Positions 6,428 to 25,208 of a stretch of DNA of 64,000 nt are shown here, in pieces (positions within the stretch are counted from its first letter, which is position 1; each line of letters begins with the position of its first letter). The position numbers and the translations under genes were made by a program. This DNA is from Clostridia bacterium (GTDB taxonomy: Bacteria > Bacillota > Clostridia > UMGS1883): NCBI GenBank assembly GCA_017505525.1, contig JAFVPB010000015.1, positions 26 through 64,025 of the forward strand, read 5' to 3'. The notes under the pieces were generated by a model. The model saw only the letters and a list, made by a program, of their open reading frames with translations, had not been told where the DNA came from and made no database searches.

Positions 6428-7374
6428 TACAAATGAAAAAATTACCTATTTTTCTTTTAATTATTATATTTCTTTTATGCTCCTGTGCTGAAAAAAGAAT
6501 TACAAAGCAAACCTTTTCCTTTGATACAGTTATAAATATCACCGCAGATAAAAGCGACGAGAAAAAAATAAGCGAAGCACTTACCAAATGCCAAAAATTC
6601 GAAAAAATTTTCAGCAGAACAAATCCCGAAAGCGAGCTCTATAAAGTTAACTGCGGTGCCAAAGAGCTTAAAAACGAGCATCTTTCACACGTCATAAACT
6701 TTGGTATTGAAATGTCGCGTTTAACAGACGGAGCGTTTGATATAACCATTGCACCGCTTTCTGACGTGTGGAACATTAAAGAACGCACCGCCCCTCCAGG
6801 GAAATCGGAGATTGAACAAGCACTAAAAAACGTGGGATACGAAAAAATTTCTTTTTCCCCGTTTAATCTTAACAACACAAAAATTGATCTTGGAGCGCTC
6901 GCCAAAGGCTACATAGCAGACAGGCTTCGGGAAGAATTTGTAAAAAGCGGATGTGAAAACGCAATAATAGATCTAGGCGGAAATATTGCTCTTATCGGAG
7001 AATACACCGTTGGCATCCGCGACCCTGAATCCCCCGAAAAAATATTTGCAACAATCAAGCTTAAAGATAAAAGTGCCGTAACAAGCGGAAGCTATCAGCG
7101 GTATTTTGAATATAACGGTAATAGATATCATCATATAATCGACCCCCGCACAGGATATCCCACAAGTAACTCTATAGCTTCGGTTACGGTAATTTCCCCT
7201 TTATCGATGCACGCCGACGCTCTTTCCACTGCCATTTTCGTTATGGGAGAGGCCGGGCTTAAGCTTTTAAAAAGCTTTCCCGATACCGATGCTTTAATTC
7301 TATTCGAGAACGGAGAAATCCTTACAAGCGATGGTTTTAAAGAAAAATATGACCTTAAACTAAAAAATAATTAA
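6424..7374 (+). CDS. apbE: FAD:protein FMN transferase (ApbE family lipoprotein)
   Basis: A lipobox 'LLCSCAEK' and the ApbE motifs 'FDITIAPL', 'DLGALAKGYIADR' and 'SGSYQRYF'. Confidence 0.8.
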   Translation: MIQMKKLPIFLLIIIFLLCSCAEKRITKQTFSFDTVINITADKSDEKKISEALTKCQKFEKIFSRTNPESELYKVNCGAKELKNEHLSHVINFGIEMSRLTDGAFDITIAPLSDVWNIKERTAPPGKSEIEQALKNVGYEKISFSPFNLNNTKIDLGALAKGYIADRLREEFVKSGCENAIIDLGGNIALIGEYTVGIRDPESPEKIFATIKLKDKSAVTSGSYQRYFEYNGNRYHHIIDPRTGYPTSNSIASVTVISPLSMHADALSTAIFVMGEAGLKLLKSFPDTDALILFENGEILTSDGFKEKYDLKLKNN

Positions 7375-7458
7375 TTAAATTGAAAAAAAAACTTGCATTT
7401 TACAATAAGTTGTGCTACAATACGATGTGTTTCATTATGCGTTGGAGGTGAAAATTAA

Positions 7459-7722
7459 ATGCCTAATATAAAATCAGCTAAAAAGAGAGTTCTTGTTATC
7501 GACAAGAAGACTATGGAAAACCGTATGGTTAAGTCTACTATCAAAACAGAGCTTAAGAAGTTTGAAGCTGCTGTAGCAGAAGGAAATAAGGCTGCTGCTC
7601 AGGAACAGCTTAACCTCTGCGTTAAGAAGCTTGACCAGGCAGGCGCTAAGGGCGTATATCATAAGAATACAATCAGCCGCAAAAAGAGCCAGCTTGCTAA
7701 AGCATTTGCAGCTCTCGCGTAA
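7459..7722 (+). CDS. rpsT: 30S ribosomal protein S20
   Basis: 87 aa, 'MPNIKSAKKRV...', the typical S20 sequence. Confidence 0.9.
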   Translation: MPNIKSAKKRVLVIDKKTMENRMVKSTIKTELKKFEAAVAEGNKAAAQEQLNLCVKKLDQAGAKGVYHKNTISRKKSQLAKAFAALA

Positions 7723-7747
7723 GTATAAATAAATACTTAAAAAACAA

Positions 7748-7775
7748 CCCAATGCAGAATGCATTGGGTTTATCG
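7748..7775 (+). terminator. rho-independent terminator after rpsT
   Basis: A CCCAATGCagaaTGCATTGGG hairpin followed by TTTAT. Confidence 0.6.
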
Positions 7776-7784
7776 TCGTTGAAC

Positions 7785-7833
7785 GGGAATGTTTAAAAAG
7801 TTCAGACCGCAAAAAGTTTAAATCGCAAAAAGT
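7785..7833 (-). repeat. terminal fragment of the interspersed element (end module only)
   Basis: 'GGGAATGTTTAAAaagTTCAGAcCGCAAAAAG' closely matches the reverse-complemented element end 'GGGGATGTTTAAAttcTCCAGAaCGCAAAAAGGC'. It is followed by a second partial repeat, 'TTTAAATCGCAAAAAGTTCAGG'. Confidence 0.45.
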
Positions 7834-8565
7834 TCAGGCTCTCGCTTTATTTACTATCTTGTAAATAATCCAGTAGAGTGAGTTTTGTTCCATCTTTGCT
7901 TTTGTAAGAGCCTCAAGGGCTCTTTTTTCGTCTGTTATTTCAATTTTTATTTTGGGATTATTCATTAAATCCCATAAAATATCGTTTGGCGTTTCTATAG
8001 TTTTTTGGGGTTCTTCCCTTAAAAGCGGCAGCAAATTCTTCTCGAAAGCCTTTCTGGTGTTCCCGCCAAAGAAATTCACACCGGGGCAGGTTTTAAGAGA
8101 AGTTTTTTTATTATAGTCTCCTATAAATCCCGCCGAAGAATACCATGCGTGATAGACAACTGCGCTTTCAGGTACAAGCTTGCACTTTTTTAAAAGCGCT
8201 TTCATCACACTCACTATTGTATTTTTTTGTTCTGTGGGCATAGTTTCAGCATCAAAATTTCCAAGGCATTCAATACATATTGCCCCCGTGTTGGCATTTG
8301 TTATGCCTGCAGGCTTAATATTTAAATCACGCCCCGAAACAACTGTTCCATCGGGAAATATCGTTAAATTCTGCGCAATGTCGCTGAATCCTCTTGATTT
8401 CACATGGTAATTTTTCATTCCCTGCTGAAGTGCCATATGATTATTTACTGAAAATGATTTTATATTTGGACTGTATGTGTGATGAAGCTGAATTTTTGTA
8501 ATTTTCCTTTTAAAATTAAAAGCATCTATGTATTTTACATATTCTTCTGCCGTATATTTTTTCAT
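7834..8565 (-). CDS. phage endolysin, N-acetylmuramoyl-L-alanine amidase (amidase_2/PGRP-type)
   Basis: Amidase_2 features ('IQLHHTYSP', 'ICIECLGNF', 'VYHAWY') sitting next to a holin gene. Confidence 0.7.
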   Translation of the reverse strand: MKKYTAEEYVKYIDAFNFKRKITKIQLHHTYSPNIKSFSVNNHMALQQGMKNYHVKSRGFSDIAQNLTIFPDGTVVSGRDLNIKPAGITNANTGAICIECLGNFDAETMPTEQKNTIVSVMKALLKKCKLVPESAVVYHAWYSSAGFIGDYNKKTSLKTCPGVNFFGGNTRKAFEKNLLPLLREEPQKTIETPNDILWDLMNNPKIKIEITDEKRALEALTKAKMEQNSLYWIIYKIVNKARA

Positions 8566-8575
8566 AATAAAACCT

Positions 8576-9007
8576 CTATTCTTTTTTATCCTTTATTGCT
8601 TCTAAGGCTTTTTTTATAAATTCGGGATATGGAACTCCCATTTTAGTTGTGTTTTCAACGATACTTAACCCCTCGTTCCCTATGAAAAACAGCATAGCTG
8701 TGTTGCGTATATACTCCGACCCCATAACGCTATCAATGCATACGCACAATGCTATCAGGCATAAAACACAAATCTTCTTTACTATTCCCTTAAATCCTGC
8801 ACGTGAGCTTGCCTTTCCGCTTTTGGTTTTATTGCTTTTGTGAAAAACAAATGCAAGCAAAAATCCCGTTATGTAGTCAATTACCATACAAACCAAAAGT
8901 GTTGCTAAAAGCTTGTCCCATCCGCCGAGCAAGGCTGATACAAATCCGCCAATTCCCGAAACTATACCAAGCAAAATATTTTTAACGTAATACGCTTTCA
9001 CATTCAT
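8576..9007 (-). CDS. phage holin (holin_4_1-like)
   Basis: 143 aa with three TM helices, the 'GGWDKLLATLLVCMVIDYITG' region, and a charged C-terminus. It lies immediately upstream of the endolysin. Confidence 0.7.
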   Translation of the reverse strand: MNVKAYYVKNILLGIVSGIGGFVSALLGGWDKLLATLLVCMVIDYITGFLLAFVFHKSNKTKSGKASSRAGFKGIVKKICVLCLIALCVCIDSVMGSEYIRNTAMLFFIGNEGLSIVENTTKMGVPYPEFIKKALEAIKDKKE

Positions 9008-9296
9008 CCTCCTTTACTGCATAAATTTCTCTTGGGTTTTCCTTAAAGTCATAGTTTGCAAGCGTTGTTACAAGCCCTGTTGTATAGCCTTTTATAATTT
9101 TGCCTGTTTCGTTGCCGTATTCATCGGTTGCAATTTCATCACGGCTCTTCTCGTGCAGTTTATAACCATCGCAAGGAAGTATTGTGTAGTTGACTACATC
9201 TCCGTTCTCATTTACACGTTCCTGCATAATGGTGTTTTCTATTTTTGTTTCAATATCTCTGTACATAAAATACCTCCTACGCCAAATTCCAACCAA
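8982..9296 (-). CDS. hypothetical phage protein
   Basis: The ORF sits inside the phage late operon. No recognisable motifs were found. Confidence 0.35.
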   Translation of the reverse strand: MVGIWRRRYFMYRDIETKIENTIMQERVNENGDVVNYTILPCDGYKLHEKSRDEIATDEYGNETGKIIKGYTTGLVTTLANYDFKENPREIYAVKEDECESVLR

Positions 9297-10098
9297 TATC
9301 GGTTATATAGGCATCGTATGTTTTGTTGTTAAATTCAGGTATCGCCCCTAAGTTAGCCATTGCTGTTTTGCAAGTATCTTTAAGAGTGAGAGTATATACA
9401 CCTGCGTTTTCTGTTCCTGAATAATCCTTCAAATGTAAAATTATATCCTTAACACTTTCCACACTTAACGGACTATAAGAAATTGATAAATTTCTTCCTA
9501 TCTCACCCTCAAACCTTACATTTTTCAATGAACTGCAAACACTGAATGCAGATTCAAAATGAGTATCAGCGTTTGAACGAATTAGCTCAATAGTGTGTAA
9601 TTTACCACACCTTGCCCAAGTATAATAGTAGTAGCCTGCGGGCATCCCTACATCTTCAAATTCTTCTAACGCAGTGCAATAATGACATATTTGTCGGTTT
9701 CCCAGTTGATGAGTGGTTTGACTAATATTAAATTTATCTGTATTTATATTTGAGAAATCAAAATATTTTTTCTCAACCTTTTTAATATAGCTGTTGTAAT
9801 GAAACATATAGGCATACGATGGAATGTTGTCAGCAGTAGCACAACCACGAGGCACTATCTTACGATTAGGTCTTATACATTCATCTGTAAAACCAATAAA
9901 AGCATAGGCATACCAATTTCTTTCGCCATTCTGTGTAAATTTATCCCAAAAGGCATTCTGCTCGTCTGTTCTGCCTTTATCATAAACCTCATTTATTCCA
10001 TTTGCCATACCATCAAGGCTCAGTGCCTCTGTGCCGCCTGTTTTAGAGCGGATATTATCCGCAATAACCGTCATTTTTTCATTAAATTTCATTACCAT
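9277..10098 (-). CDS. phage protein with BspA-type leucine-rich repeat
   Basis: One BspA-like LRR, 'FESAFSVCSSLKNVRFEGEI'. It lies between the tail-fibre and lysis genes. Confidence 0.4.
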   Translation of the reverse strand: MVMKFNEKMTVIADNIRSKTGGTEALSLDGMANGINEVYDKGRTDEQNAFWDKFTQNGERNWYAYAFIGFTDECIRPNRKIVPRGCATADNIPSYAYMFHYNSYIKKVEKKYFDFSNINTDKFNISQTTHQLGNRQICHYCTALEEFEDVGMPAGYYYYTWARCGKLHTIELIRSNADTHFESAFSVCSSLKNVRFEGEIGRNLSISYSPLSVESVKDIILHLKDYSGTENAGVYTLTLKDTCKTAMANLGAIPEFNNKTYDAYITDIGWNLA

Positions 10099-11120
10099 TC
10101 ACCTCCTGAAATAGCATTTTCAACGTAGCACTTTACTTCCTCTATCTCCTGAGTTGTAAAATAGTCCACCCCTTTTATAGGGGCATCTCCCTTAACTTTT
10201 CCCACATTGAATGATGAAAGATTTTCTCCGAGGTTTAAAATCAACTCGCCGTTTTCATTAAGACTCACCCCGGGAGGATTCTCTTCGTCGGGATAGTGCA
10301 CCCATAAATCGCCGTTTTCATCCACCGAGAAAGAATAAAATCCGTTTACGGGCACAATTGCACCACCTAAACCCTGCTCGCCTCTTTCTCCCTTATCTCC
10401 TTTTTCGCCCTTATCACCTTTTTCACCCTGGATGCCTTGCTCTCCCTGTATGCCCTGAATGCCCTGTTCGCCTTTTTCACCTTTATCGCCTTTTGAAGCA
10501 ATCATAAGCCAGTAGTTTTCATTCTCTGGCGAAACTCCTTTGCATTCTTTTATACAAACAAAGCATCTTCCTTTGTAAACTGCTTTATTGTTTTTTTCGT
10601 AGAAATACTCTTCATCGTATTCATCCCAAACGTTCATTGAATCAGAAAGCTTTTTTATTTCTTCATTTGCATCTGCAAGCTTTTTTGAAACCTTTGGCAT
10701 AATTTCCTCTATTTCCTGCTGAAGCTGAAGCGTTTGGCTTGGAGTTGGCTCGCAAATATTTAAGCCCCCTTCGCTTTCACTTACAAAAAGAGTATCACGC
10801 ACACTTTTCAGAATTTTTGTTGGAGCGGCACTGTAGTATCCCTCCACAGTAAAAGAACACCATCCCGTTTCCTTTGTTGCTTCGGGAGGAATTTTTGTTT
10901 CATATATAAGGTTGTTCTCTTGGGCATTTGGTTTAAGAACAACACTTACCGCATTTTCGCCCTTAGCATCGCGCCATATAATTCTTTTGCCAAAGCCAAG
11001 CCAGCTCTCATCAAAAGTTATTTCTACATTTTGTGAATTCCCACTGCCTGCCGCACCTGCATTCTTGTTATTTTTTTCAACAAACTGCCCATTTATTTTT
11101 ATTTTTATGGTGTTATTCAT
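10092..11120 (-). CDS. collagen-like repeat tail fibre protein
   Basis: About 17 consecutive G-X-Y triplets ('GDKGEKGEQGIQGIQGEQGIQGEKGDKGEKGDKGERGEQG') flanked by non-collagenous domains. A 'caggagg' RBS precedes the start. Confidence 0.7.
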   Translation of the reverse strand: MNNTIKIKINGQFVEKNNKNAGAAGSGNSQNVEITFDESWLGFGKRIIWRDAKGENAVSVVLKPNAQENNLIYETKIPPEATKETGWCSFTVEGYYSAAPTKILKSVRDTLFVSESEGGLNICEPTPSQTLQLQQEIEEIMPKVSKKLADANEEIKKLSDSMNVWDEYDEEYFYEKNNKAVYKGRCFVCIKECKGVSPENENYWLMIASKGDKGEKGEQGIQGIQGEQGIQGEKGDKGEKGDKGERGEQGLGGAIVPVNGFYSFSVDENGDLWVHYPDEENPPGVSLNENGELILNLGENLSSFNVGKVKGDAPIKGVDYFTTQEIEEVKCYVENAISGGEW

Positions 11121-11132
11121 CTTGTCCTCCTG

Positions 11133-11166
11133 TAAAATTTTAAAAAAATCCCCGTGATAAATTTAT
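11133..11166 (-). terminator. rho-independent terminator of nfnAB
   Basis: A CCCCGTGATAAatttaTCACGGGG hairpin followed by T-rich sequence on the minus strand. Confidence 0.6.
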
Positions 11167-11188
11167 CACGGGGATTTGATAATTTATT

Positions 11189-12586
11189 TTAATTATTCTG
11201 TTTTTTGATATAGTCGTCAATCGCTTTTGCTGCTTTCTTTCCTGCGCCCATTGCAAGAATAACTGTTGCTGCGCCTGTTACGGCATCTCCGCCTGCATAA
11301 ACGCCCTCGCGGCTGGTCTGCCCAAATTCTCCGTCGGTTACAATACAACCGCGCTTGTTCGTTTCGAGACCGGGAGTGGTTTTTCTTATTAAAGGATTGG
11401 GACTTGTGCCTATCGACATTATCACCGTATCAGCTTCTAGCACGAATTCGCTTCCCTCTATCTCGCAGGCTTTTCGTCTTCCACTTTCATCAACTTCGCC
11501 AAGCTCCATAGAAATGCAACGCATAGCACATACATCGCCGTTATCATCACCAAGAATTTCCACAGGGTTTGTAAGCGTTTTAAAGATAATTCCCTCTTCA
11601 ATCGCGTGCTCAACTTCCTCTTTTCTTGCGGGGAGCTCGTCCATAGAACGGCGGTATACAATATAAACCTCGTCCGCGCCGAGACGAAGAGCACTTCTTG
11701 CGGCATCCATCGCCACGTTTCCACCGCCTACCACACAAACCTTTTTGCCCTTTTTAATAGGTGTTTTCGAATTGGGCAGATACGCCTTCATAAGGTTAAT
11801 TCTTGTTAAATATTCATTGGCACTGTAAACACCTTTAAGTGCTTCACCCTTAATATTCATAAACCTTGGAAGTCCTGCACCGCTTGCAATGTAAACCGCC
11901 TCAAATCCGTTTTCAAAAAGCTCGTCTACGGTTATGATTTTTCCAATAACCATATTGGTCATAATATTTACGCCCATTTTCTTAAGCTTTTCTATTTCGC
12001 TGTTTACTATATCCTTTGGAAGACGGAATTCAGGAATTCCGTAAACCAGCACGCCACCTGCAGTATGAAGTGCTTCAAAAACTGTTACCTCGTATCCGAG
12101 ACGTGCAAGATCACCTGCCGCGCTTAATCCCGATGGGCCGCTTCCTATTATTGCAACCTTGTGTGAATTCGATTCTATCTTTTCTGTTTCATTTCCACTA
12201 TGCTCTCTGTGATAATCGGCTACAAATCTTTCAAGTCTACCTATAGCTACACTTTCACCTTTAATTCCTCTCACACAAACACTTTCACACTGAGTTTCCT
12301 GAGGGCAAACTCTTCCGCAAACTGCGGGAAGCGCACTCGAACGGGAAATGATTTCATAAGCGCCCTCCATATCTTCGTTTGCAACCCTTTCAATAAACTC
12401 AGGAATATCAATTCTTACAGGGCACATTGAAGTACATGGCTTATTCTTACAATTCAGGCAACGCCTTGCCTCTTCTACTGCCATCTCGAAGCTGTAGCCC
12501 TCACTGACTTCTTTAAAATTGCTTTTTCTGACACTTGCATCCTGCACAGGCATAGGGCATCTTTTTGGATTCATATTTCTTTCCAT
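11189..12586 (-). CDS. nfnB: NADH-dependent reduced ferredoxin:NADP+ oxidoreductase subunit B (glutamate synthase small-chain-like, SudA/GltD family)
   Basis: Two [4Fe-4S] cysteine clusters near the N-terminus ('CLNCKNKPC', 'CPVRIDIPEF', 'CGRVCPQETQCES') and FAD/NAD Rossmann motifs ('VAIIGSGPSGL', 'VCVVGGGNVAMD'). The start is trimmed to the ATG at 12586, which follows a GGGGG RBS and leaves a 1-nt gap to the nfnA stop. Confidence 0.85.
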   Translation of the reverse strand: MERNMNPKRCPMPVQDASVRKSNFKEVSEGYSFEMAVEEARRCLNCKNKPCTSMCPVRIDIPEFIERVANEDMEGAYEIISRSSALPAVCGRVCPQETQCESVCVRGIKGESVAIGRLERFVADYHREHSGNETEKIESNSHKVAIIGSGPSGLSAAGDLARLGYEVTVFEALHTAGGVLVYGIPEFRLPKDIVNSEIEKLKKMGVNIMTNMVIGKIITVDELFENGFEAVYIASGAGLPRFMNIKGEALKGVYSANEYLTRINLMKAYLPNSKTPIKKGKKVCVVGGGNVAMDAARSALRLGADEVYIVYRRSMDELPARKEEVEHAIEEGIIFKTLTNPVEILGDDNGDVCAMRCISMELGEVDESGRRKACEIEGSEFVLEADTVIMSIGTSPNPLIRKTTPGLETNKRGCIVTDGEFGQTSREGVYAGGDAVTGAATVILAMGAGKKAAKAIDDYIKKQNN

Positions 12587-12587
12587 A

Positions 12588-13430
12588 TTACTGTGCCCCC
12601 TTTTTAAGAAGATTGCAGTTTTCTTCACGCTTCATATTTTCCGCTCTTTTATACATTGTGCCACGGCTGATAGCTTCATCGAAATCCACAAGATGTCCGT
12701 CGAAATCAGGTCCGTCAACGCAGGCAAACTTAGTTTCTCCACCAACCGTAAGGCGGCAGCCTCCGCACATTCCTGTCCCGTCAATCATTATTGGATTCAT
12801 CGATACAGTTGTTTTAATATTATATTTTTTTGTAACAGCACAAACAAACTTCATCATCATAAGAGGGCCTATTGCAAACACTTCATCATATTTATTACCC
12901 TCACAAATCAGCTTTTCAAGAGCCTCGGTAACAAGTCCTTTTTCTCCGTAGCTTCCATCGTCTGTCATAATTTTAAATGTTTGGCTTACGTTTTTAAATT
13001 CCTCTTCTAAAATTACAAGGTCTTTGTTTCTGAATCCCGCAACAGTGTGAACAGTACATCCGTTTTCATATAGTTTTTTTGCAACGGGGAAAGCTATCGC
13101 CGAGCCTACTCCACCGCCTACAACACAAACCTTTTTCAGATTGTCAAGCTTTGTGGGCGAGCCAAGAGGCCCCACAAAATCGCAGATGCTTTCTCCCTTC
13201 CCCAAAGAATTAAGCTCCATCGTTGCCTGCCCGATAACCTGAAAAATTATAGTTACGGTTCCGTTCACCTTATCACTGTCAGATATTGTAAGCGGCACAC
13301 GCTCTCCATCGGGCGTAGCACGAAATATTATAAACTGCCCCGGCTGTGCTTTTTTAGCTATAAGCGGTGCGCTTACCACTATTTTTGTAACACTGGGGTT
13401 AAGTGAAGTTTTTTCAATAATTTCAAACAT
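12588..13430 (-). CDS. nfnA: ferredoxin-NADP+ reductase subunit A (PyrK-like FAD/[2Fe-2S] subunit, SudB family)
   Basis: A PyrK-like fold with 'VCVVGGGVGSA' and a C-terminal 2Fe-2S motif 'CGGCRLTVGGETKFACVDGP'. It is tightly coupled to nfnB. Confidence 0.85.
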   Translation of the reverse strand: MFEIIEKTSLNPSVTKIVVSAPLIAKKAQPGQFIIFRATPDGERVPLTISDSDKVNGTVTIIFQVIGQATMELNSLGKGESICDFVGPLGSPTKLDNLKKVCVVGGGVGSAIAFPVAKKLYENGCTVHTVAGFRNKDLVILEEEFKNVSQTFKIMTDDGSYGEKGLVTEALEKLICEGNKYDEVFAIGPLMMMKFVCAVTKKYNIKTTVSMNPIMIDGTGMCGGCRLTVGGETKFACVDGPDFDGHLVDFDEAISRGTMYKRAENMKREENCNLLKKGAQ

Positions 13431-13532
13431 AAGTTTCTGTCCTTTCGAGTATAAACCTACTCTACATTATACAAAAAACCTCGCCTTAACGCAAGTGGTA
13501 TTTTTAATTTGAAAAGACAACTTTCTTCCTCT

Positions 13533-14717
13533 TTAGTCCTTAACACGTAAATTGGGTGAAAGATTTAAGATTTTGGCACTTTCAGAATCAAGATATCCAA
13601 GCGTTTTCCACTTATCAAGTGCTATTTTAATTTTATCGAGTTTTTCTTTATACTCACGGTCTTTTTGAGAATCTTCCTCGTCTTTAAGTATTTTCTTCAG
13701 TGCCAAATCATAATCACTAAGATATTCTGCCTTTTCGTTTTCAAATTTATCAAGCGAAAGATTATACTCTCTGTCTTCCACTTCCTTTTTGCGTTCTGTT
13801 TCACTTTTATATCGTTCGTTCTCAAGCTCTTTCTCGCTTTTGTATCTTTCATTTTCGAGCTCTTTTTCACTTACGTATCTTTCTTCTTCGATTTCTCTTT
13901 CCTTCCTGTATTTTTCGTCTTCCAGCGAATCAATAAACTTTTTATAATCAAATTCACGGTCTTTTTCAAAGCTCTCTACTCTGTCGAGATATTTTTCATA
14001 TTCGTTTTCTGAAAGAGTATTAAGTGCTTCAAGTTCTTTAAAGTCATTGCTTACAGAATCAAGATACATATCATAGTTCAAAGAGTAAAGCTCGGGAATA
14101 ATATCGGCAACCTTTGAATTATAGTAATCTGCCGCACTGAGTGCCGCACCAGCAGCATAGCTGCTTACGTTGCCGCCCGTGTTTACGGAAAGCTTACCCA
14201 AAATGTCCTCCATACTGCGCTCTCCCTCACGAAGATAGGCTTCTTTATAATATTTATAAATATCGTCCTCAAAGGGATTATACGAAAATTCTTTCCTCTT
14301 TAATATCTTATTTAAGAGGTTGTTTATATCTTTTGAGTAGCTGTTTTTATATTCTTCTCTTTTTCCGCTTGTTCTGAAATCGTCTGCACCCATTATATAT
14401 TTTACTGCCTCATCATACACATCGTCGTAAGCGTAATGTATAAGGCCTTCGGTACCGCTTGCTTTTTTCACTCGCTTTTTAAGAGTTTTTGAAACCGTAT
14501 CTCTTGATGCACCGCTGTTCATCTGCTTTTTCAGCACAACACTGTAGTCGGTATCATCAAGCCAGCCTGAGTACCTGTTTGTTTTTTCATAATCAAGGCC
14601 TTCACTGTCGATTTTTTCGTTACGTGTTTTTTCAAGCTTTGCCGCCGTAACATAGTCGCCTTTTTTTACCGCCTCATTAATTTGTTCTTGATAATCGGTA
14701 TCTTTATTATAGCTCAT
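13533..14717 (-). CDS. hypothetical phage structural protein, D/E/K/Y-rich with tandem repeats
   Basis: Low-complexity charged protein with repeated '...ERYKSEKELEN...' units. It sits in the phage late operon. Confidence 0.4.
   Translation of the reverse strand: MSYNKDTDYQEQINEAVKKGDYVTAAKLEKTRNEKIDSEGLDYEKTNRYSGWLDDTDYSVVLKKQMNSGASRDTVSKTLKKRVKKASGTEGLIHYAYDDVYDEAVKYIMGADDFRTSGKREEYKNSYSKDINNLLNKILKRKEFSYNPFEDDIYKYYKEAYLREGERSMEDILGKLSVNTGGNVSSYAAGAALSAADYYNSKVADIIPELYSLNYDMYLDSVSNDFKELEALNTLSENEYEKYLDRVESFEKDREFDYKKFIDSLEDEKYRKEREIEEERYVSEKELENERYKSEKELENERYKSETERKKEVEDREYNLSLDKFENEKAEYLSDYDLALKKILKDEEDSQKDREYKEKLDKIKIALDKWKTLGYLDSESAKILNLSPNLRVKD
13793..13893 (-). repeat. imperfect ~33-bp tandem repeat (x3) inside CDS 13533-14717
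   Basis: Three successive ~33-nt units encode the repeated ERYKSEKELEN-like peptide. Confidence 0.5.
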
Positions 14718-14892
14718 TTTCTCCCCCCTCGTAAATTCTGGTTTTACTTGTGTTTATTTCTATGATATTTGAACTGTCGAGATGCGTAAGTATATACTTC
14801 AGCTCTTCTTCGTTCGCTCTCAGGTAATTTTCTATTACCCTTATTTTTTCTTCGGTGCTTTTATCCTGTAAATCTGAAAGTGAATGAAACAT
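14707..14892 (-). CDS. hypothetical small phage protein
   Basis: The likely start is the ATG (MFHSLSDLQ) after an 'agaggag' RBS. Confidence 0.3.
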   Translation of the reverse strand: MFHSLSDLQDKSTEEKIRVIENYLRANEEELKYILTHLDSSNIIEINTSKTRIYEGGENEL

Positions 14893-14905
14893 TTTTTCTC
14901 CTCTT

Positions 14906-16677
14906 CTACACAATAAATTCGCGTACTATTGATAAGATATTGCATCGTCCTCTGCCCGAAATCCTAAGCATCATTTCGTGGCATTTTCCTACGCCAATGG
15001 GAATTGTGATATGTTCTTTATTTTTTCCGTAACGCACCATAATTTGCTCCCACGTGCCGTTATCTCTTTTTATTTCGACCTTTATCCATGAGTTTTCAAA
15101 AAGCTCAGCAGATACCCACATTTTAGTATATTTCTTTTTAAGATGATAAAACTCTCTGAAAGGCTGAAGCGTTACAAACCACTCATCGTCTGTGCAGTCC
15201 TCCTCTGAAAAACGGTAGAGCCCGCAATCGTCTATTGCATATAGCTCTCCGTTGTGATAAGAAAATGCCTTTATTTTGGTATTGCCACAGATTGACCACA
15301 ACGATTTTTTCATATCATAAGCAAACAGCTTCCTGCCATCCGTTGTGTCGGCGGCAAGATAATATATTTTCCCATTAGTGCCACCGGAGCAGTTTTCCAT
15401 TTTTATATTTTCAATTTTCCCCGAAATCAAACTTGGAAGACCTCCGCAAAAAGAGTAAACACCGCCAATTCCTGAATAAAAAATTTCCGACCCGATGTTT
15501 ACAAGGCTGTTTTTTCCGTGTGCATCTATCCCGCTCCCTATGCTTTCCACAAGCTGAAAATTAGATGGTTTATCCCCATAAAGCTTAAAAATGGAATCGC
15601 TTTTAAAGAAAACGCAATAATTTCCATAAGAAACACACGCGTTAAAATCTTCCCTTGAATTCGCACTCACGCTGTAGCTATCGGTAGAAAGCATTCTGTA
15701 GACAAAGAAATTATACGGATCACCAAGTTTCGAAGCATAAATGGTATTTTTTTCGCACCCCCACAGTCTGTTATTGTGCACGCACACACACGAAAAATCA
15801 GGTATTTTTCTCTTCACTGTAATTTTTCCTGTTTCCTGAGCCTCACTGAGTGCTTCCTCTTCAAAAACAAGTGTATGGTCCCCTACTTCCTTTACCACAA
15901 GAATTTTATTATTTGCTTCATTTTCGCATCCCGAAATTTCAATGCCATCGCCTTTTCTTATTTTTGAAAAAACATTTTCGTATTCATTTCTTAACGTATA
16001 AAGATAAGTTTTCAGCGTATATTTGCCTGCATCATCTTTTTTTGATGAAAGCACTTTTCTGTACTGACTGTATGTACACTTATCTTTAATTATTGTTCCT
16101 GGTAAAATTTCCTCTGCGAATACAGGGGCATATGTTCCGAGTTTTATGCTTCCTTCCGTTATTTCCGCCGAAGAATAAACTGAAAGTTTTTCATTTTCAA
16201 AAAACACAAGCTCATCTTCCACAACATCTGTAACCCATTTTTCTTCAGGAACAGATACAGAGTTTAACCCAAATCTTACTGTGGTATCTGAAAAAGTGTA
16301 TTCCGCCTCTAAGCTTTCAAAAACTTTTGTTTCCGTATTATAGCAAACCTTGTCGGGGAAAATTAAAATCATATTTCCCATTACGGCAATTTCCTTTTCT
16401 CCCGAAGTCAAATTTCCAACCTTTTCTTTCCCATAGAATAAGGCTCCGCTATCTATAACGCATTCCTTTTGCGAAAAAGCAATGCCCTGCGGTGATTTAT
16501 AAAATTCATCCCTGATAAGCTTGTTTGATTGTGTTAAAAAAGGAAAGTTTTTATGCGAGATTCCGCTGCACTCCCTTATCTCGCCCTCTAAGTAATTGTT
16601 TGTAGTATTAAGGCCTCCAAAACCCGATATTTCTTTTTTATATTTTCTGGTTTGTAAAATATTAGGTAGCTTCATTT
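14906..16677 (-). CDS. phage structural protein (putative tail/adsorption apparatus component)
   Basis: 590 aa from the ATG at 16677 (MKLPNILQ) after an 'aaaggag' RBS. The position in the late operon is the only evidence; no motif was recognised. Confidence 0.4.
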
Positions 16678-16685
16678 TTTCTCCT

Positions 16686-17036
16686 TTAAATTCTGATTTC
16701 GCACTGTGGAGGAATATGTGTGCGGATATAGTTTTTTCTGAATTCCTCGTATGCACGCATAAACATCGCAGCACTAACGGCATAAGATGCCGTTTCTCCA
16801 CTGTGAAAATCTCCCATTGCAATAATATAAAGCTCGTAAATGTTGTCGTACGGAGCTTTTGCTAAAAGCTCCGTTTCTCCGCTATCCGGAAATTCATATT
16901 TTTTGAACTGAGGTAAATGCATAGTTTCAAGTGCAATTTTTCCGTCGAGTTCGCTTATCCATTCTGACTTTTGTTCGTCGGTAAATGTATCGGGATGCAG
17001 CCTCATTGCCCTTTCAATAGCCTTATTAATTGTCAA
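16686..17036 (-). CDS. hypothetical phage protein
   Basis: The ORF overlaps its neighbours in the late operon. Confidence 0.35.
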   Translation of the reverse strand: MTINKAIERAMRLHPDTFTDEQKSEWISELDGKIALETMHLPQFKKYEFPDSGETELLAKAPYDNIYELYIIAMGDFHSGETASYAVSAAMFMRAYEEFRKNYIRTHIPPQCEIRI

Positions 17037-18135
17037 TCAGAATGCACTCCTTCCACTTTTCTCCATCGAAAATATAAATTCCGTTCTTTTCTTCACAAAG
17101 CTTTACTGCATGATCAGAATTAAATTCAGCATTTTCAACTAAGGTATCACCGCTTAAAACAAACATCGGTCGGTAGCCGTTTTTTTCCGTAGCTTTTACG
17201 CTTTCAAGTTCTCCCTGACTGTTAATTATTGCATTATTACTGCTGTAGAGACCTCTTGTCCAGTAAGCAGAGTATGTTCCGCCTGTAACCATTGCCCTTT
17301 TGGAATTTAGCGCGAAATACTCAAATTCTCCAAGTTCAACGCTTGTTGGCAGAAAAACCCTTCTTTTCCCTGTGCTTTTAACATCTATTTTCACAATCTT
17401 ATTCAAAAGATTTTTGCCTAGAAAACTTACATAGATTGATTCAAGAAACAAATCTGCAGTAGATAAAGCATACTCTGTTTTTCCCGCTCTGTCGAAGCAC
17501 ACTTCTTCGGGAAGAATTTCGTTTCTTAAAAGTGCAACCATTCCGTTACCTGTGTAATTCTTATCCACGATTATATAAGGGGTTTCAACTCCGTTTTCCA
17601 TAACAATCAGCTTGGTTCCCGTTTCCTGTTCTCCCAGCGTGATAGAGCTTTCTTTTTTTGTACTTATAAATACATCTCCGATGCGGGCATCTTCGGGAAA
17701 GCTTGGGGCAACAGCAATATTTCTTACACACAACTCTTCTTCATCCACAGAATAAGCTTTTACTTTTCCTGTGAATTCCCCGCCGTTTTTCTTCATAGCA
17801 TTATCAAAAAGTGAATCTGCATACTGAAACACATCGCATTTTTTCTCGTTTGAGTCGTATATAGATGAAATCATATCTCCCAGAGCATCTTTCCCTTTTT
17901 CCCCTTTGGGAATAAAAAAAGTTAAAAGAGGGTTTTTTATGTTGCTTGAATCAATTTCAACTCTTGCGTTCTCGTTATCTTCCACTGTAATTATTTCCTT
18001 TATGGAAAACACCGGAGTATATCCACTTACACCCTGTGCTCCCTGCACACCTCTTTCCCCTTGTGCACCTCTTTCGCCCGAACTTCCTGCTTCACCTTTT
18101 TCGCCTTTTATTCTTCCAAGATTAAAGCTTGCCAT
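17026..18135 (-). CDS. phage protein with N-terminal collagen-like G-X-Y repeats (head or tail fibre)
   Basis: N-terminus 'GEKGEAGSSGERGAQGERGVQGAQGVSGYTP', followed by a globular domain. Confidence 0.5.
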   Translation of the reverse strand: MASFNLGRIKGEKGEAGSSGERGAQGERGVQGAQGVSGYTPVFSIKEIITVEDNENARVEIDSSNIKNPLLTFFIPKGEKGKDALGDMISSIYDSNEKKCDVFQYADSLFDNAMKKNGGEFTGKVKAYSVDEEELCVRNIAVAPSFPEDARIGDVFISTKKESSITLGEQETGTKLIVMENGVETPYIIVDKNYTGNGMVALLRNEILPEEVCFDRAGKTEYALSTADLFLESIYVSFLGKNLLNKIVKIDVKSTGKRRVFLPTSVELGEFEYFALNSKRAMVTGGTYSAYWTRGLYSSNNAIINSQGELESVKATEKNGYRPMFVLSGDTLVENAEFNSDHAVKLCEEKNGIYIFDGEKWKECILIDN

Positions 18136-18147
18136 AAAATCAACTCC

Positions 18148-18411
18148 TTAAATCTTTCTGGCTTCAGCTTCGGCAAAAAATTCGCTTGATTTGTTATCCA
18201 TAAGTCTTGCTGTTTTAATATCCTGTCGCATTGAATTTTCTAAAACATCGGCAAACTTCTTTTTGATTTTAACCTTCTTGCCTCTCTGAATAACACAGCT
18301 TTCCCCGTTTACTGCCACAAATACATTATCCTTATAATCCTTGTTATCCCTGAAAAGCTCTATTTCGACCAAAGCTTCCTTTTCTTTTGATTTCATATTT
18401 TTTGCTGCCAT
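18148..18411 (-). CDS. hypothetical phage protein (head-associated?)
   Basis: 87 aa, immediately downstream of the major capsid gene, with an 'aggaaagga' RBS. Confidence 0.35.
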   Translation of the reverse strand: MAAKNMKSKEKEALVEIELFRDNKDYKDNVFVAVNGESCVIQRGKKVKIKKKFADVLENSMRQDIKTARLMDNKSSEFFAEAEARKI

Positions 18412-18566
18412 TTTTTACATCCTTTCCTGTTTTTACTTTCCCTTAGTTTTTTTGCAGGGGCGGACACCCTCACATTTCCGCAAAATACAGATCCCACGGG
18501 CGGATGTAGGCATCCGCCCCTACAATTAATAATTAAATCAGTTTTTACTGAAAAATATTTTTAAAG

Positions 18567-18830
18567 TTCCAAGTGATTTAAACATCCTCTTACCAGAAGA
18601 GGATAGGAGAAATTGCTTGAAACGGACAAACTGAGCCAAGCTATGCTTGGGTTACCCGAAGGCGTACACAGGTACGCCGAGAGGCGAAGTTTGTTCGTAG
18701 CAAAAGGCTTAATAATAAAGAAAAATCGAATTCAGTGAGATTTTTCAACCAAAACACAATGTTTCATTACTTTGCGCTTATTTCTTTATATCTATCTTTG
18801 CCTTTTGCGTTCCAAGTAATTTAAACATCC
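18567..18830 (+). repeat. interspersed structured element, copy 2
   Basis: Flanked by 21-bp direct repeats 'TTCCAAGTRATTTAAACATCC' (18567-18587 and 18810-18830). It carries the 5' module 'ATAGGAGAAATTGCTTGAAACGGACAAACTGAG' and the 3' module 'GAGGCGAAGTTTGTTCGTAGCAAAAGGCTTAATAATA...GAAAAATCG..GATTTTTC...GCCTTTTGCG'. Confidence 0.6.
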
Positions 18831-18832
18831 CC

Positions 18833-20179
18833 TTACCCAAATGTGCTTGCTGTTTCTACCCTTACCATGTATGGTTCAACAAGTCTAACCGTTGCTTTTG
18901 TAGCCTTCCAGCCTGCTGTTGCACGCTGATTGAGCGGGTCAGCAGTTCCTGCTGAGCCAAGCTGCTTGATTATATGTGTGAGGCCACCGCCCACAATTTC
19001 TGTTGTGCCATAAGCATTTTCACCGAAAATAAGTGTTGAATAAACATCTCTGCCCTTGTATCCTGCTTCACCGGGGTAAATAACCATTCCTGCTGAAATT
19101 GTATTTTTGGGTGCCTTTGCAAGATAAAGAGCCTTTTTATCTGCATCGATACCTGAAATTTCAAGCACTTCGGCATCACTTTCAGAATAGATAATCTGAA
19201 TTTTTCCGCCTGCAAGTCGCTCTGCATCTTCCAGAGTAATTTCTTCCTTAATTTTTAATTCAAATGTTGATGATGTTCCGCAGCCCTCTGCAAGTGTTGG
19301 GTTGCTATCGAGAACACTGTAGGAAGAAGCTGTAAGTTCACGCGACTGCGCACAAAGATCTTCTGCATGGAAAACCTTCGCTTCACTTGATTCCACAAAG
19401 CGAACATTTTCAATCTTACCGATTTCGCCCTGATAAATACCCTCGGGATCGGAATATGTTTTAACGTTAATCCACTTGGGATCACTCATAAGGTCGTATG
19501 CTGTATCAGGGTGAATAATACCCACATAGCTGCCATCGATAGTTTCGGCACTCATCTTCTTAAGATAGCGCACTGCCTTTCTGACAGCGTCGACCGTAAG
19601 ATAGTGATTTCCGCTTTCTTCTCCTCCGTTTAAAAGTCCTCTTTCATCAACCTGACCTTCGCTGTACTGCACATTTGTACCGCCTGAAAGCACCTCACGG
19701 GTGATTGTATCAAGAGTTCTTCCCGCCTGACCACCAAGAAGCTTTGTAGCCTGTACAAGATTGTTGTCAACTGCAGTAAGCATAAGCATATCTGAAAGCT
19801 CAATAAATCCACCATACTGCTTAACATCTGCAGAAACAACGCCCATATCAAGCTTCTGTCCTGATGGGGTAACGCCCTCTGCAAGAGGTGTTGTCATTTT
19901 GGGAAGCGGGTCGTACTTTCTGAATTCTATTGTCTTACCGTTTCCCTTCGGAATAGGGCACTTCTGTCCAAACTGGTCATGGACAAGTTTAGGCTCTGCC
20001 ATGTCAATAAGATAATCCGAGTAATATGTTCTCATTTCCGCACTTAATCCACCGTTTTCACCGTAAGGAGTGAATGCGCCTGTTGTATTATTAGCAATAC
20101 CTGCCGTTGTGTTTACAGTGTCGCCTGCAGCAAAAAGCTGCAAGTCAATAATTCTTTCTGTCTGTTTCAAATTTTTCAT
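18833..20179 (-). CDS. phage major capsid protein
   Basis: 448 aa in the canonical position downstream of portal and scaffold. The N-terminus 'IIDLQLFAAGD' resembles the L27/Prp cleavage motif. Confidence 0.7.
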   Translation of the reverse strand: MKNLKQTERIIDLQLFAAGDTVNTTAGIANNTTGAFTPYGENGGLSAEMRTYYSDYLIDMAEPKLVHDQFGQKCPIPKGNGKTIEFRKYDPLPKMTTPLAEGVTPSGQKLDMGVVSADVKQYGGFIELSDMLMLTAVDNNLVQATKLLGGQAGRTLDTITREVLSGGTNVQYSEGQVDERGLLNGGEESGNHYLTVDAVRKAVRYLKKMSAETIDGSYVGIIHPDTAYDLMSDPKWINVKTYSDPEGIYQGEIGKIENVRFVESSEAKVFHAEDLCAQSRELTASSYSVLDSNPTLAEGCGTSSTFELKIKEEITLEDAERLAGGKIQIIYSESDAEVLEISGIDADKKALYLAKAPKNTISAGMVIYPGEAGYKGRDVYSTLIFGENAYGTTEIVGGGLTHIIKQLGSAGTADPLNQRATAGWKATKATVRLVEPYMVRVETASTFG

Positions 20180-20197
20180 CCTTTCCTTTTACATTTA

Positions 20198-21028
20198 TCA
20201 GAAGCTTATTTTTTCGCCTCTTGCCGCACGTTTTGCAATCTCTTTGCGGTCTTTTTTGCTAAGCCTTGAAATATTATTTTCGAAAATCATTCCGCTTGTA
20301 GAGCGCGAGCCGTTTTCAATGGGGCGCACTCCCTTAGATCTGATTGAATCCACAATTTTCTTCTCAGCGTTTTTTGCATTCTTTTCAAGAAGCGTATCCA
20401 TATTTGTAACTTCGTAGGCATGCTTTACGCTTACTCCCACCCTGATAAGGCGTACAAATTCAGGATTTTTAAGCTGCTCTTTAAAATCGAAATCGCTGTA
20501 TTCCTTTTTTGTTTCTTCAACCTCAGCGCGAAGCTTTTCTGCTCTGGCCTTCGACTTTTCGTCTCTTTCGCTGTTCTCTCTCATCTTCTTAAGATAAGCG
20601 TTCTCTGCAATCAGTCTCCTGATAATGTCTTCGTATTTGTTTTCATTGTTGTTTTTGGTGTTTTCCATCTCGCCTGTTATCTCCTTTTCAAGCTTTTGTG
20701 CATTGTTATCATCAATGTTGTACTTTTTCATAAGCAAGTTTATGATATGTTCGTTTTTGTCGAGAGTTTCTTTCAACTTTTTCACCTCCTTGAATCTGCG
20801 GTCGATAATTTTTTGCACTCTTTGAGCAAATTGATTTTTAAATTTGCCGCTTATAAGCTTTTCAAACTCCGCATTTTTTTCTTTTTCGCTTTCGGCGTCA
20901 AAGCCTTCTTTTTCTTCGCCCGTATGCAGTTTGCCTGTTTCTGCAGTTTTTTCGGCATCTATACCTTCCCTTTGCTGCGCGCTTTGCTCGGGGATTGCAT
21001 GCTTTTGTTCTTTTTTCTTCATTGTCAT
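20198..21028 (-). CDS. phage scaffolding protein
   Basis: Highly charged, alpha-helical, coiled-coil-like 276-aa protein lying between the portal/Prp genes and the capsid gene. Confidence 0.55.
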   Translation of the reverse strand: MTMKKKEQKHAIPEQSAQQREGIDAEKTAETGKLHTGEEKEGFDAESEKEKNAEFEKLISGKFKNQFAQRVQKIIDRRFKEVKKLKETLDKNEHIINLLMKKYNIDDNNAQKLEKEITGEMENTKNNNENKYEDIIRRLIAENAYLKKMRENSERDEKSKARAEKLRAEVEETKKEYSDFDFKEQLKNPEFVRLIRVGVSVKHAYEVTNMDTLLEKNAKNAEKKIVDSIRSKGVRPIENGSRSTSGMIFENNISRLSKKDRKEIAKRAARGEKISF

Positions 21029-21339
21029 CTTTTCCTCTCAGTTTTAACTATCTTAATGTTTTCGGGAAATTGTCTTGCAAGCATCGTGAATCCTTCAAGC
21101 GCCATTTTATATGCTCCTCGGCATTCACGCCCTCCTGAAAAGCTGATTTCTCCAAGCCCTTTCTGGGTATTTGTTTCAAGCGAAGTAACAAGGGCATCCT
21201 TTTCCGCTGCTGCCACTAAGGAATAGTATAAAATACTCACAGCACTGCAAAGAATATCTTCTCCCTTTGAATACATAGCGTGCCCTTTTATATTTACCTT
21301 AAAATTATTTGCCCTTTTAACTGCCTGAATTTCTATCAT
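21025..21339 (-). CDS. Prp-like cysteine protease (ribosomal-processing protease family, DUF464), phage-encoded
   Basis: 'KGHAMYSKGEDILCSAVSIL' matches the Prp His/Cys catalytic dyad region 'GHAGY..G.DIVCAAVS'. It is 104 aa, the typical Prp size. Confidence 0.65.
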   Translation of the reverse strand: MIEIQAVKRANNFKVNIKGHAMYSKGEDILCSAVSILYYSLVAAAEKDALVTSLETNTQKGLGEISFSGGRECRGAYKMALEGFTMLARQFPENIKIVKTERKR

Positions 21340-22961: not shown

Positions 22962-23512
22962 CCTTTTTCCTCCTTAATATCGGGCAGTATTACAACTCCC
23001 GATTTTTCATTTTCTTCATCTTGTTTTTCTTTGTGCTTCGCCTCTTCAATTTGTAGTTTCCTTTCATCAAGAGGAGATACAATTCCATACATAACGCTTT
23101 TTATCTGTTCGAGCGACTCAAGCGCCTTTATTGCCGAGCCTAACGATTTCATATCAATTTTATTGAAAATCTGCTCTTCAGTAACAGTGGTGCCGTCGCT
23201 TCCCTTTTCTTTTATGAGATAGCGCCTGAACTGATCTTTGTCGCTAACGGCTTCATCAAGAATTCCCGAAAGCTTATTTGCAATATCAAGCTCCTTCGAG
23301 AGCTTTATTGCGGCAATATATGCGGCCTTATCGGCACACTTTTCCATCACGCTCCCAAGATATTCCTGCCTTGCCTCCTGCCATCTTTCTATCTGATAAT
23401 GACGATAAAGCGTTGCAGGATGTATCCCGTGTTTTTTACTGAGTGCCGCTGCCGATATATCGCTCGTTACAAATTCTGTTTTAAGAGCATTCCAATCATA
23501 TTTTTTCTTCAT
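22958..23512 (-). CDS. phage HTH-domain protein (possible small terminase subunit / packaging protein)
   Basis: N-terminal HTH 'ISAAALSKKHGIHPATLYRHYQ' and an acidic coiled-coil C-terminus. It lies between the large terminase and the portal. Confidence 0.4.
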   Translation of the reverse strand: MKKKYDWNALKTEFVTSDISAAALSKKHGIHPATLYRHYQIERWQEARQEYLGSVMEKCADKAAYIAAIKLSKELDIANKLSGILDEAVSDKDQFRRYLIKEKGSDGTTVTEEQIFNKIDMKSLGSAIKALESLEQIKSVMYGIVSPLDERKLQIEEAKHKEKQDEENEKSGVVILPDIKEEKG

Positions 23513-23523
23513 TTTCCCCTCCG

Positions 23524-24954: not shown

Positions 24955-25208
24955 ATGTTTTCACATATTTCCAGAATATAATTCCCCTCTTTGTCTTTTG
25001 TTGCAAAAAGCCTGTAATTCCCAAGAACATTCTTCACATCGTCTGCGCTTATCGTTCTTTTTCCTCCCTGTTCTTTTACAAGCATTACAATATTTGCCGC
25101 TGCACAGTCAAGAAGCTGGCGCATAGCCTCAATTTCTTCCCTTAGCTCCCCTATAAGCTTTTTATCGTCGGCGATTTTCTTATCACGCCTTTTAATTTCG
25201 TTATTCAT
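24951..25208 (-). CDS. hypothetical phage protein (coiled-coil)
   Basis: 85 aa, overlapping the terminase start. Confidence 0.3.
   Translation of the reverse strand: MNNEIKRRDKKIADDKKLIGELREEIEAMRQLLDCAAANIVMLVKEQGGKRTISADDVKNVLGNYRLFATKDKEGNYILEICENI

Follow-up and report, generated by a model that had tools for sequence, protein, structure and literature searches.

The closest described counterpart of the locus considered here is FpGTA, a podovirus-like gene transfer agent (GTA) of Faecalibacterium prausnitzii that is near-ubiquitous in the genus (Borodovich et al., Nat Commun 2026, PMC12946183). Its operon I encodes a TerS candidate, TerL, a portal, a Prp-annotated protein, a capsid protein of the N4-gp56 family, a nozzle and an abundant 'TolA'-annotated protein (PMC12946183). 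Operon II, at a distance of about 125 kb, encodes fibres or receptor-binding proteins (RBP), a holin and an endolysin (PMC12946183). The accessions of FpGTA proteins are RCH50844-50852 and RCH48794-48797. FpGTA particles have been obtained experimentally and package DNA of ~8.5 kb (PMC12946183). In another case, that of Caulobacter, the GTA cluster (CcGTA) needs anti-termination at internal terminators (PMC11150451). The present study concerns nfnAB, a two-gene operon for a redox-balancing enzyme found among phage-derived genes in a 64,000-nucleotide stretch of a Clostridia bacterium assembly (GCA_017505525.1, contig JAFVPB010000015.1; the whole stretch is called the window below). An initial annotation had read this operon as a moron, possibly an auxiliary metabolic gene (AMG), while leaving room for a domesticated element in which host genes reside. 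The evidence gathered here supports the latter: nfnAB is probably a host housekeeping operon located at the seam of a domesticated, vertically inherited, podovirus-derived and GTA-like cluster of uncultured gut Clostridia.

The role of Nfn in balancing NADPH, ferredoxin and NADH is known from the enzymology of C. kluyveri, T. maritima and P. furiosus. In the window, nfnA (12588-13430, minus strand) encodes the small subunit of 280 residues, which binds FAD and carries the Asp/Cys3 [2Fe-2S] motif DGTGMCGGCR...FACVDGP, and nfnB (11189-12586, minus strand) encodes the large subunit of 465 residues, with two four-cysteine cluster motifs and the FAD and NADPH Rossmann folds. The profile matches reach 395 bits for nfnA (NF004862, cutoff 220) and 588 bits for nfnB (TIGR01316, cutoff 472). 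Compared with solved enzymes, NfnA scores 295 bits against the small subunit of P. furiosus NfnI (5JCA_S) and 260 bits against T. maritima NfnA, but only about 100 bits against PyrK; NfnB scores 552 bits against T. maritima NfnB (4YLF_B), versus 261 against GltD and 206 against DPD. The NfnA motif and the cluster-ligand motifs CLNCKNKPCTSMCP and CGRVCPQETQCESVC match the solved Nfn enzymes residue for residue, and all eight cysteines of the two NfnB [4Fe-4S] motifs, like the Asp/Cys3 set of NfnA, align with those structures (4YLF/4YRY, 5JCA). We take these residues to be the Fe-S ligands, as assigned in the published structures. T. maritima NfnAB (4YLF/4YRY) and P. furiosus NfnI (5JCA) have the same two-gene layout of small and large subunits, and no sequence-level difference from them was found in the window genes, of which the genomic context alone is unusual. 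The nfnA stop codon and the nfnB ATG overlap (TAATATG); this ATG is the preferred start, and a 479-residue open reading frame (ORF) beginning with GTG was rejected as nfnB. As judged from these scores and motifs, the window nfnAB genes are bona fide host-type genes for an NADH-dependent ferredoxin:NADP+ oxidoreductase.

As the initial annotation had described, the operon is embedded between a phage protein of 394 residues (p394, 13533-14717) upstream and a collagen-repeat, tail-fibre-like protein (10092-11120) downstream, all on the minus strand. Seven contigs encode the exact NfnA protein. The four places displayed come from different samples and have the same upstream neighbour, and this recurrence rules out an assembly artefact as the origin of the arrangement. 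The comparison of composition proposed at the outset revealed no contrast between nfnAB and its flanks: GC content at third codon positions (GC3) and codon usage of both nfnAB and the phage-like genes stay within the host range of the window, which argues only against a recent acquisition.

The minus-strand ORFs are continuous from 25631 to 7834 and, with a divergent repressor gene, the cluster covers ~18 kb (7834-26429). Its head/virion half (half I) ends with p394 and its fibre/lysis half (half II) begins with the collagen-repeat fibre gene. In IMG/VR, 80 related viral loci (TerL 58-85% identical) keep the order of the modules. Among them, contigs of 30-43 kb, with TerL at 58-73% identity and early genes occupying 7-10 kb upstream, share the succession TerL, portal, Prp, scaffold, capsid, p87, p116, internal virion protein (IVP) and p394. 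The 18-kb element of the window is thus a truncated derivative of this phage family. Besides the genes for virion, packaging and lysis, it has kept only the repressor and the late promoter. When compared by megablast with 50,697 phage records, the 18-kb cluster gave no match, so that none of these sequenced phages is close to it.

The first reading of the initial annotation supposes that nfnAB is a moron or AMG of an active temperate phage, expressed during lysogeny or infection to rebalance host NADPH and ferredoxin. Such a view would account for the position of a co-oriented operon amid late genes, behind a promoter of its own and followed by a terminator, and for the classification by IMG/VR of fragments of this same cluster as viral (L038-L040). 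However, family searches of the window ORFs detected neither an integrase nor replication genes in the cluster, and neither a tRNA nor att repeats were found at its borders, where the longest direct repeat has 10 nt. Moreover, the cluster measures 18 kb as against 30-43 kb for the phage relatives, and neither nfnA nor nfnB occurs in any of the 80 related viral loci (0/80). The host-like codon usage described above also speaks against an active phage, as do the conserved chromosomal flank, the co-divergence with host-type genes and the behaviour of the terminator, which are presented below. Altogether, nfnAB is extremely improbable as cargo of an active phage.

To follow the cluster through the clade, a species scan considered one genome per GTDB species and returned 33 loci. 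The close cluster was present in identical gene order in 31 of the 33. In 28 of these 31, nfnAB stands between p394 and the fibre gene; in the three others (L018, L026, L031), which are devoid of nfnAB, p394 is directly followed by the fibre gene. Context look-ups added further full copies (L123, L125-127). Identity to the window typically amounts to 82-87% for TerL, 73-83% for the capsid, 72-81% for NfnA and NfnB, about 70% for the portal, about 48% for p394 and about 40% for IVP. The chromosomal flank rpsT-apbE-coaE-polA is common to four lineages (window, L127, L005 and L023, with rpsT adjoining the amidase gene in L127), and the identities of rpsT, NfnA/B and TerL drop in the same order among them. 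Neighbour-joining (NJ) trees of TerL plus portal and of NfnA plus NfnB recover the same groups, with a Mantel r of 0.88 (0/2000 permutations as high) and mean p-distances of 0.195 and 0.185, respectively.

Selection was estimated from seven close species pairs (synonymous divergence, dS, of 0.2-1.0). The ratio of nonsynonymous to synonymous divergence (dN/dS) is 0.02-0.27 for every phage-like gene, with 0.02-0.06 for TerL and portal against 0.02-0.08 for nfnA and nfnB, and dS is alike across genes, equal between the phage-like and the host-type ones. A capsid value of 0.85, with a dS of 2.6 (L017/L021), was ignored as an artefact of ORF extraction. Congruent trees, like dS, low dN/dS and host-like composition point to a long co-residence and to selection for function, which fits neither a recent prophage nor a decaying remnant. 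On this comparative evidence, the cluster is inherited vertically with the host clade and is under purifying selection. In this context, one may imagine an inert cryptic prophage, the decaying genes of which would be kept only by linkage to an essential nfnAB operon. The lack of replication and integration functions would agree with this idea. However, about 20 phage-like ORFs are all intact across more than 30 species under the low dN/dS just given, half I is conserved where it is unlinked to nfnAB, and loci devoid of nfnAB have an intact cluster; a cryptic remnant is therefore very unlikely.

The halves of the cluster and nfnAB occur in four architectures: half I-nfnAB-terminator-half II, as in the window; half I-terminator-half II; half I alone with nfnAB-terminator-half II elsewhere; and nfnAB alone. 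The second is found in four loci without nfnAB (L018, L026, L031, L124), where the terminator alone separates the two halves. In L118-121, including the very prevalent species P0155 and P0130, nfnAB, the terminator and half II occur without half I. The order in P0155 and P0130 is host genes (YtxC, DUF6873), the same promoter, nfnAB, the same terminator, the collagen fibre gene, three small ORFs and Amidase_2; this detached half II has a dN/dS of 0.07-0.27 with a dS equal to that of host genes. Even where the head operon is missing, the N-terminal 312 residues of the fibre are conserved. Conversely, half I alone (L131-133; P0246, P0247 and P0249, the most prevalent TerL cluster) runs from the repressor to the p394 homologue, which is followed by a peptidase gene. 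These loci have neither nfnAB nor half II, their dN/dS is 0.02-0.17, and their dS of about 0.5-0.6 matches that of the nfnAB-half II pair. We infer from this that the two kinds of loci are the halves of one system residing at separate places. Finally, in P0220 (L122), nfnAB is found beside rpmB (L28) and rplKAJL-nusG-secE, with a different terminator and no phage genes.

That the halves can live apart (L118-121 versus L131-133) might suggest that host nfnAB merely marks the border between two unrelated prophage remnants. The initial annotation had itself envisaged such a border, should the genes at 13533-18135 prove not to be phage-derived. It may be added that the true phage relatives do not carry this fibre/holin/amidase set after their p394 homologue. 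Nevertheless, the region 13533-18135 is phage-derived, as indicated by a match of the IVP homologue to phrog_511, by IMG/VR homologues in the same order and by the predicted structure of p394. The latter (AlphaFold2, AF2; predicted local distance difference test, pLDDT, of 83) is all-alpha with one helix of ~190 residues, and in a BFVD structure search it matches a dozen uncharacterised proteins of gut 'Podoviridae sp.'. Two separate remnants are also at odds with the four loci where the halves are adjacent, with the fact that they jointly make up one complete head-fibre-lysis set under a single repressor, and with the matching dS between species pairs and purifying selection on both halves. 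Little credence can be given to two independent origins.

The history of nfnAB itself can be approached through NfnB. The list of NfnB homologues contains the best 120 matches, all with 77-100% identity; being saturated, it is useful through context look-ups only. In the NfnB tree, sequences accompanied by half II only, and those free of phage genes, nest among the element-embedded ones. NfnAB is thus the ordinary orthologue of the clade, around which the neighbourhood has been rearranged; such orthologues outside a complete cluster do not suit a moron or AMG. In the TerL plus portal tree, with an approximate root on the phage relatives, the three species without nfnAB form one clade nested among those having it, and this nesting favours one insertion followed by one later loss. 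It would also be conceivable that the ancestral phage captured nfnAB as a moron before domestication and that the phage copy then replaced the host one. The moron-like position in a late operon with a private promoter, and the occurrence of the full arrangement in the deepest branches of both trees, would be consistent with this scenario. However, no related phage carries nfnAB, the same-clade NfnB of L122 is free of phage genes and nests within element-linked sequences, the composition is fully host-like, and the terminator is either older than nfnAB or independent of it. A capture by the ancestral phage is thus unlikely, and we retain the insertion of a host operon into an already resident element.

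The terminator deserves particular attention. An intrinsic terminator with a stem of 14 bp, a loop of 4 nt and a run of seven T is located between the two halves, after nfnB (11142-11177, minus strand). The hairpin CCCCGTGATAAATTTATCACGGGG lies at 11173-11150 on the minus strand, its extended stem AAATCCCC...GGGGATTT covers 11177-11146, and the seven T follow at 11148-11142. With 14 pairs, it ranks first among terminator-like sites in 7000-26500, in keeping with the strong terminator announced after nfnB. It ends about 10 nt before the ribosome-binding site (RBS) of the fibre gene and about 21 nt before its ATG. In all 33 loci folded (33/33), in all three arrangements, a GC-rich hairpin with a T-run is found directly 5' of the fibre RBS, with a minimum free energy (MFE) of -19 to -40 kcal/mol and z-scores of -3 to -11, and with stem sequences that vary by lineage. 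Between p394 and the fibre gene, the loci without nfnAB retain a CCCCGTG...CACGGGG hairpin (for instance CCCCCGTGATACGTTTGTCACGGGGG). As the hairpin persists where nfnAB is absent, the terminator is to be assigned to the boundary of the two halves and not to nfnAB. In the true phage relatives, no terminator follows the p394 homologue and another gene begins within about 10 nt.

A conserved motif, GTGTAACGACTTTCG(N)CA, was noticed in the ~20 nt 5' of the boundary hairpin, amid otherwise unconserved intergenic sequence. It occurs in L006, L008, L010, L014, L025, L029, L030, L032, L033, L035, L118-121, L123 and L124, including one lineage without nfnAB, and is missing from the window (11178-11200). 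In L025, L029, L030 and L032, it could pair with sequence 3' of the hairpin. This motif is a candidate anti-termination or regulatory site.

Upstream of nfnA, the gap of about 100 bp previously reported measures 102 bp (13431-13532) and contains a putative promoter, TTGCGT (13494-13489) and TATAAT (13471-13466) separated by 17 nt on the minus strand, the -10 element of which ends 35 nt before the nfnA ATG. In a scan of 41 loci, the best match is TTGnnn-17-TATAAT in most cases, with a perfect TATAAT in 36 and a -35 element starting with TTG in 36; the distance from its end to the nfnA start is mostly 31-46 nt. The remainder of the intergenic sequence cannot be aligned between loci. L013, L015, L027, L034, L122 and L127 deviate from the conserved pattern. 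As far as this comparison goes, nfnAB has a positionally conserved promoter of the sigma-70 type. Of the independent promoter and terminator initially attributed to the operon, the promoter is conserved along with nfnAB, and the terminator is also present in relatives that have no nfnAB.

At the other end of the cluster, a CI/LexA-like repressor gene (HTH_3 plus Peptidase_S24; 25818-26429, plus strand) is divergent from the other genes. It was not accepted as a canonical LexA, since the lexA model stays below its cutoff and matches the S24 half alone. An S24 repressor gene is found at the equivalent position in L025, L029, L032, L123, L125 and L131-133. A putative late promoter on the minus strand (region 25675-25730) consists of TTGACT (25714-25709) and TATACT (25691-25686), 17 nt apart. 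Two exact ACTTACGTAA boxes bracket it, one upstream of the -35 element (25730-25721) and the other downstream of the -10 element (25684-25675); they are likely to be repressor operators. A third, degenerate copy follows in the divergent region (25632-25817). The promoter is conserved in L131 and L133, where similar boxes (AACTTACATAA) flank it. Apart from the two at the late promoter, no exact box was found, be it around nfnAB or around half II, which lends no support to half II having a repressor-controlled promoter of its own.

These elements may be assembled in the following model. A single insertion would have placed the nfnAB operon in an already resident element, downstream of p394 and ahead of a terminator that was there before it. 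One subclade would later have lost nfnAB from the seam, and half I would have become separated from nfnAB in another lineage. In uninduced cells, nfnAB would be expressed constitutively from its own promoter, as an enzyme balancing NADPH, ferredoxin and NADH, and the terminator would keep this transcription out of the holin and amidase genes. Upon induction, autocleavage of the S24 repressor would allow transcription from the late promoter across half I and nfnAB. Expression of the fibre and lysis genes would then need read-through or anti-termination at the boundary hairpin, because the hairpin and the fibre RBS lie too close together to accommodate a promoter and half II has no operator box nearby. 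One may go further and imagine that nfnAB and the conserved terminator form a regulatory gate, in which read-through of the hairpin at 11142-11177 would set both the timing of lysis and its basal leak. Such a gate is no better than a doubtful possibility. If it existed, release of GTA-like particles would be tied to the transcriptional state of the cell, and possibly to its redox state, and, as a corollary, an unrecognised and widespread GTA of the podovirus type would have been caught while dispersing into separate operons.

Several points weigh against the interpretation of nfnAB as a housekeeping operon in a domesticated cluster. Firstly, the cluster is known from its genes alone, whereas particles and packaging have been seen with FpGTA, and no anti-terminator protein was identified in the cluster. 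Secondly, the case for vertical inheritance is built on agreement with the nfnAB tree and on the flank shared by four lineages, and not on a separate species tree, and the flank past the amidase gene differs in many other species, so that chromosomal position is not universally kept. Thirdly, the NJ rooting, on a viral outgroup or at the midpoint, is approximate, and there could have been a single gain of nfnAB after the split of the lineage devoid of it. In addition, the assignment of the split halves to one genome relies on prevalence, study series and matching dS, with no shared contig. No second nfnAB copy was found in the 64-kb window, the only DNA searched. Finally, the nfnA promoter of the window, considered alone, is a 9/12 match of the kind reached by about 40% of shuffles, which is not above chance; it is accepted because of the comparative support and not for this match alone.

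The other genes of the cluster complete the picture. On one side, the cluster is flanked by the host genes polA-coaE-SLT-apbE-rpsT, up to 7722, and on the other by rimP-nusA-infB-rbfA-truB-ribF, from 26546. In the direction of transcription, all on the minus strand, half I starts with three small ORFs of 76, 67 and 85 residues (24951-25631), ahead of the terminase gene and conserved in relatives, which are candidates for a small terminase or a regulator. The first of them, p76 (25401-25631), is cysteine-rich (CVVCG...C..FC...KKCG) and resembles a zinc ribbon, with no family match; it is 55-76% identical across species and could be a regulator or a factor resembling a small terminase. Searches of Pfam, PHROG and NCBIfam with p76, p67, p85, p61 and p394 gave no informative match. 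The large terminase gene terL (Terminase_6N, 23524-24954; dN/dS 0.02-0.04 across species) is followed by p184, upstream of the portal gene and within 20198-23512, then by the genes of a P22-type portal (21336-22961) and of a Prp-like cysteine protease (21025-21339). The protease gene lies between those of the portal and of a scaffold-like protein (phrog_13908, 20198-21028). It is present in the window, L013, L016, L023, L027, L127 and L131 and missing in other lineages. The major capsid protein (18833-20179) belongs to the N4-gp56 family (TIGR04387, 305 bits). It has 448 residues in the window versus 341 in L123 and L125, so that an insertion domain or extension is specific to certain lineages. 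Next come the virion genes p87 (18148-18411), a fibre-like collagen/DUF6273 protein of 369 residues (17026-18135) and p116 (16686-17036), the IVP homologue (14906-16675/16822; phrog_511, 3e-43) and the virion gene p61 (14707-14892), which precedes p394. In half II, the fibre gene is followed by those of a protein of 271 residues resembling leucine-rich repeats (LRR; 9277-10092), of p94 (8982-9266), of a holin (Phage_holin_4_1, 8576-9001) and, lastly, of an N-acetylmuramoyl-L-alanine amidase (Amidase_2 endolysin, 7834-8565); the proteins encoded between fibre and holin are variable. The region past the amidase gene varies by species and often contains genes typical of defence systems or mobile elements, which suggests an insertion hotspot adjoining the cluster. 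Among these genes are GmrSD, Endonuclease_NS_2, Fic, a DNA methylase, HATPase and a 375-residue ORF resembling a tyrosine recombinase; examples are found in L125 (17295-20960), L121 (15081-21401), L029 (17280-18407) and L123 (17882-19434).

Viral databases hold pieces of this system. The fragments L038-L040 (e.g. IMGVR_UViG_3300029860_000336; TerL 83-85%), catalogued as viral in IMG/VR, end at p394 or, in L040, within the IVP gene, so that this host element is already being taken for a virus by virome pipelines. In GenBank, MT836119.1, MT835804.1 and MT835785.1 (L128-L130), labelled 'UNVERIFIED: Bacteriophage sp.' and obtained as scaffolds from human faecal virus-like particles (VLP), match NfnB at 64-73% in a protein-level search of phage records (INPHARED). 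They were rejected as cases of phage-borne nfnAB: their other genes (recA, uvrA-like, phosphotransferase system (PTS), ftsK-like) are those of a bacterial chromosome and they contain no phage genes of the cluster. By their gene content, these records are host DNA from viromes deposited as phage. A virome pipeline would score nfnAB in such a 'prophage' as an AMG, and the pieces held in IMG/VR and GenBank make this locus a warning case.

What is new here is the scale and the structure of the element, which extends over more than 30 species in three or four architectures, with a boundary terminator that is universal and a core redox operon conserved at the seam. A conserved, selected and repressor-controlled podovirus-derived cluster is thereby marked out in dozens of uncultured Clostridia species of the ruminant and human gut. 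Its contiguous, nfnAB-split and two-locus forms offer a natural series of a GTA-like cluster fragmenting into operons among host genes. The late promoter with its operators, the boundary terminator and the candidate anti-termination motif are concrete targets for understanding how lysis is gated.

How, then, does the cluster stand with respect to known systems? Morons and AMGs such as lambda bor/lom or cyanophage psbA are autonomous promoter-gene-terminator units amid co-oriented late genes, a layout that nfnAB resembles. However, they travel on replicating phages, and carriage on a replicating, transmissible phage genome, which defines them, is not found here: the element is non-mobile and no related phage has nfnAB. 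Furthermore, the terminator is not confined to loci with the insert and the genes are the ordinary nfnAB orthologues of the lineage. With the alphaproteobacterial GTAs of Rhodobacter (RcGTA) and Caulobacter, the cluster shares a phage origin, a comparable size (~15 kb in those systems), the lack of replication and integration genes, vertical inheritance and purifying selection; these systems also have accessory genes elsewhere in the genome and, in CcGTA, internal terminators. On the other hand, they are of the siphovirus type, come from another phylum with unrelated gene families, and answer to two-component, quorum or GafYZ systems of the host instead of a CI-like repressor. To our knowledge, no conserved metabolic operon is known inside their clusters.

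A GTA is defined by four features, one of which is that its particles package random host DNA in pieces shorter than the cluster itself. The window cluster has the other three: its virion, packaging and lysis genes lie in the chromosome with no functions for replication or integration beside them, its descent is vertical and its phage-derived genes are under purifying selection. On these genomic grounds we file it as a GTA-like domesticated element. The resemblance to FpGTA is the most extensive. Both reside in the chromosome of gut Clostridia (of the Oscillospirales type), without replication genes and without genes for a tail tube, a sheath or a tape measure. Family labels (N4-gp56 capsid, Prp, 'Terminase-like') and order are the same, with a window capsid matching TIGR04387 and a Prp gene between portal and capsid; operon I ends with the long-helix 'TolA'-annotated protein as half I ends with the long-helix p394. 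In some relatives of the window, moreover, the halves are also at separate loci. By contrast, the halves are here contiguous or only 2.4 kb apart, with nfnAB exactly at the seam corresponding to operons I and II, the cluster is headed by a divergent S24 repressor gene, and a conserved terminator stands between the halves. From shared family labels and gene order, FpGTA is thus the closest described analogue of the cluster, which we do not file as a member of the FpGTA family and which would extend this very recent finding beyond Faecalibacterium.

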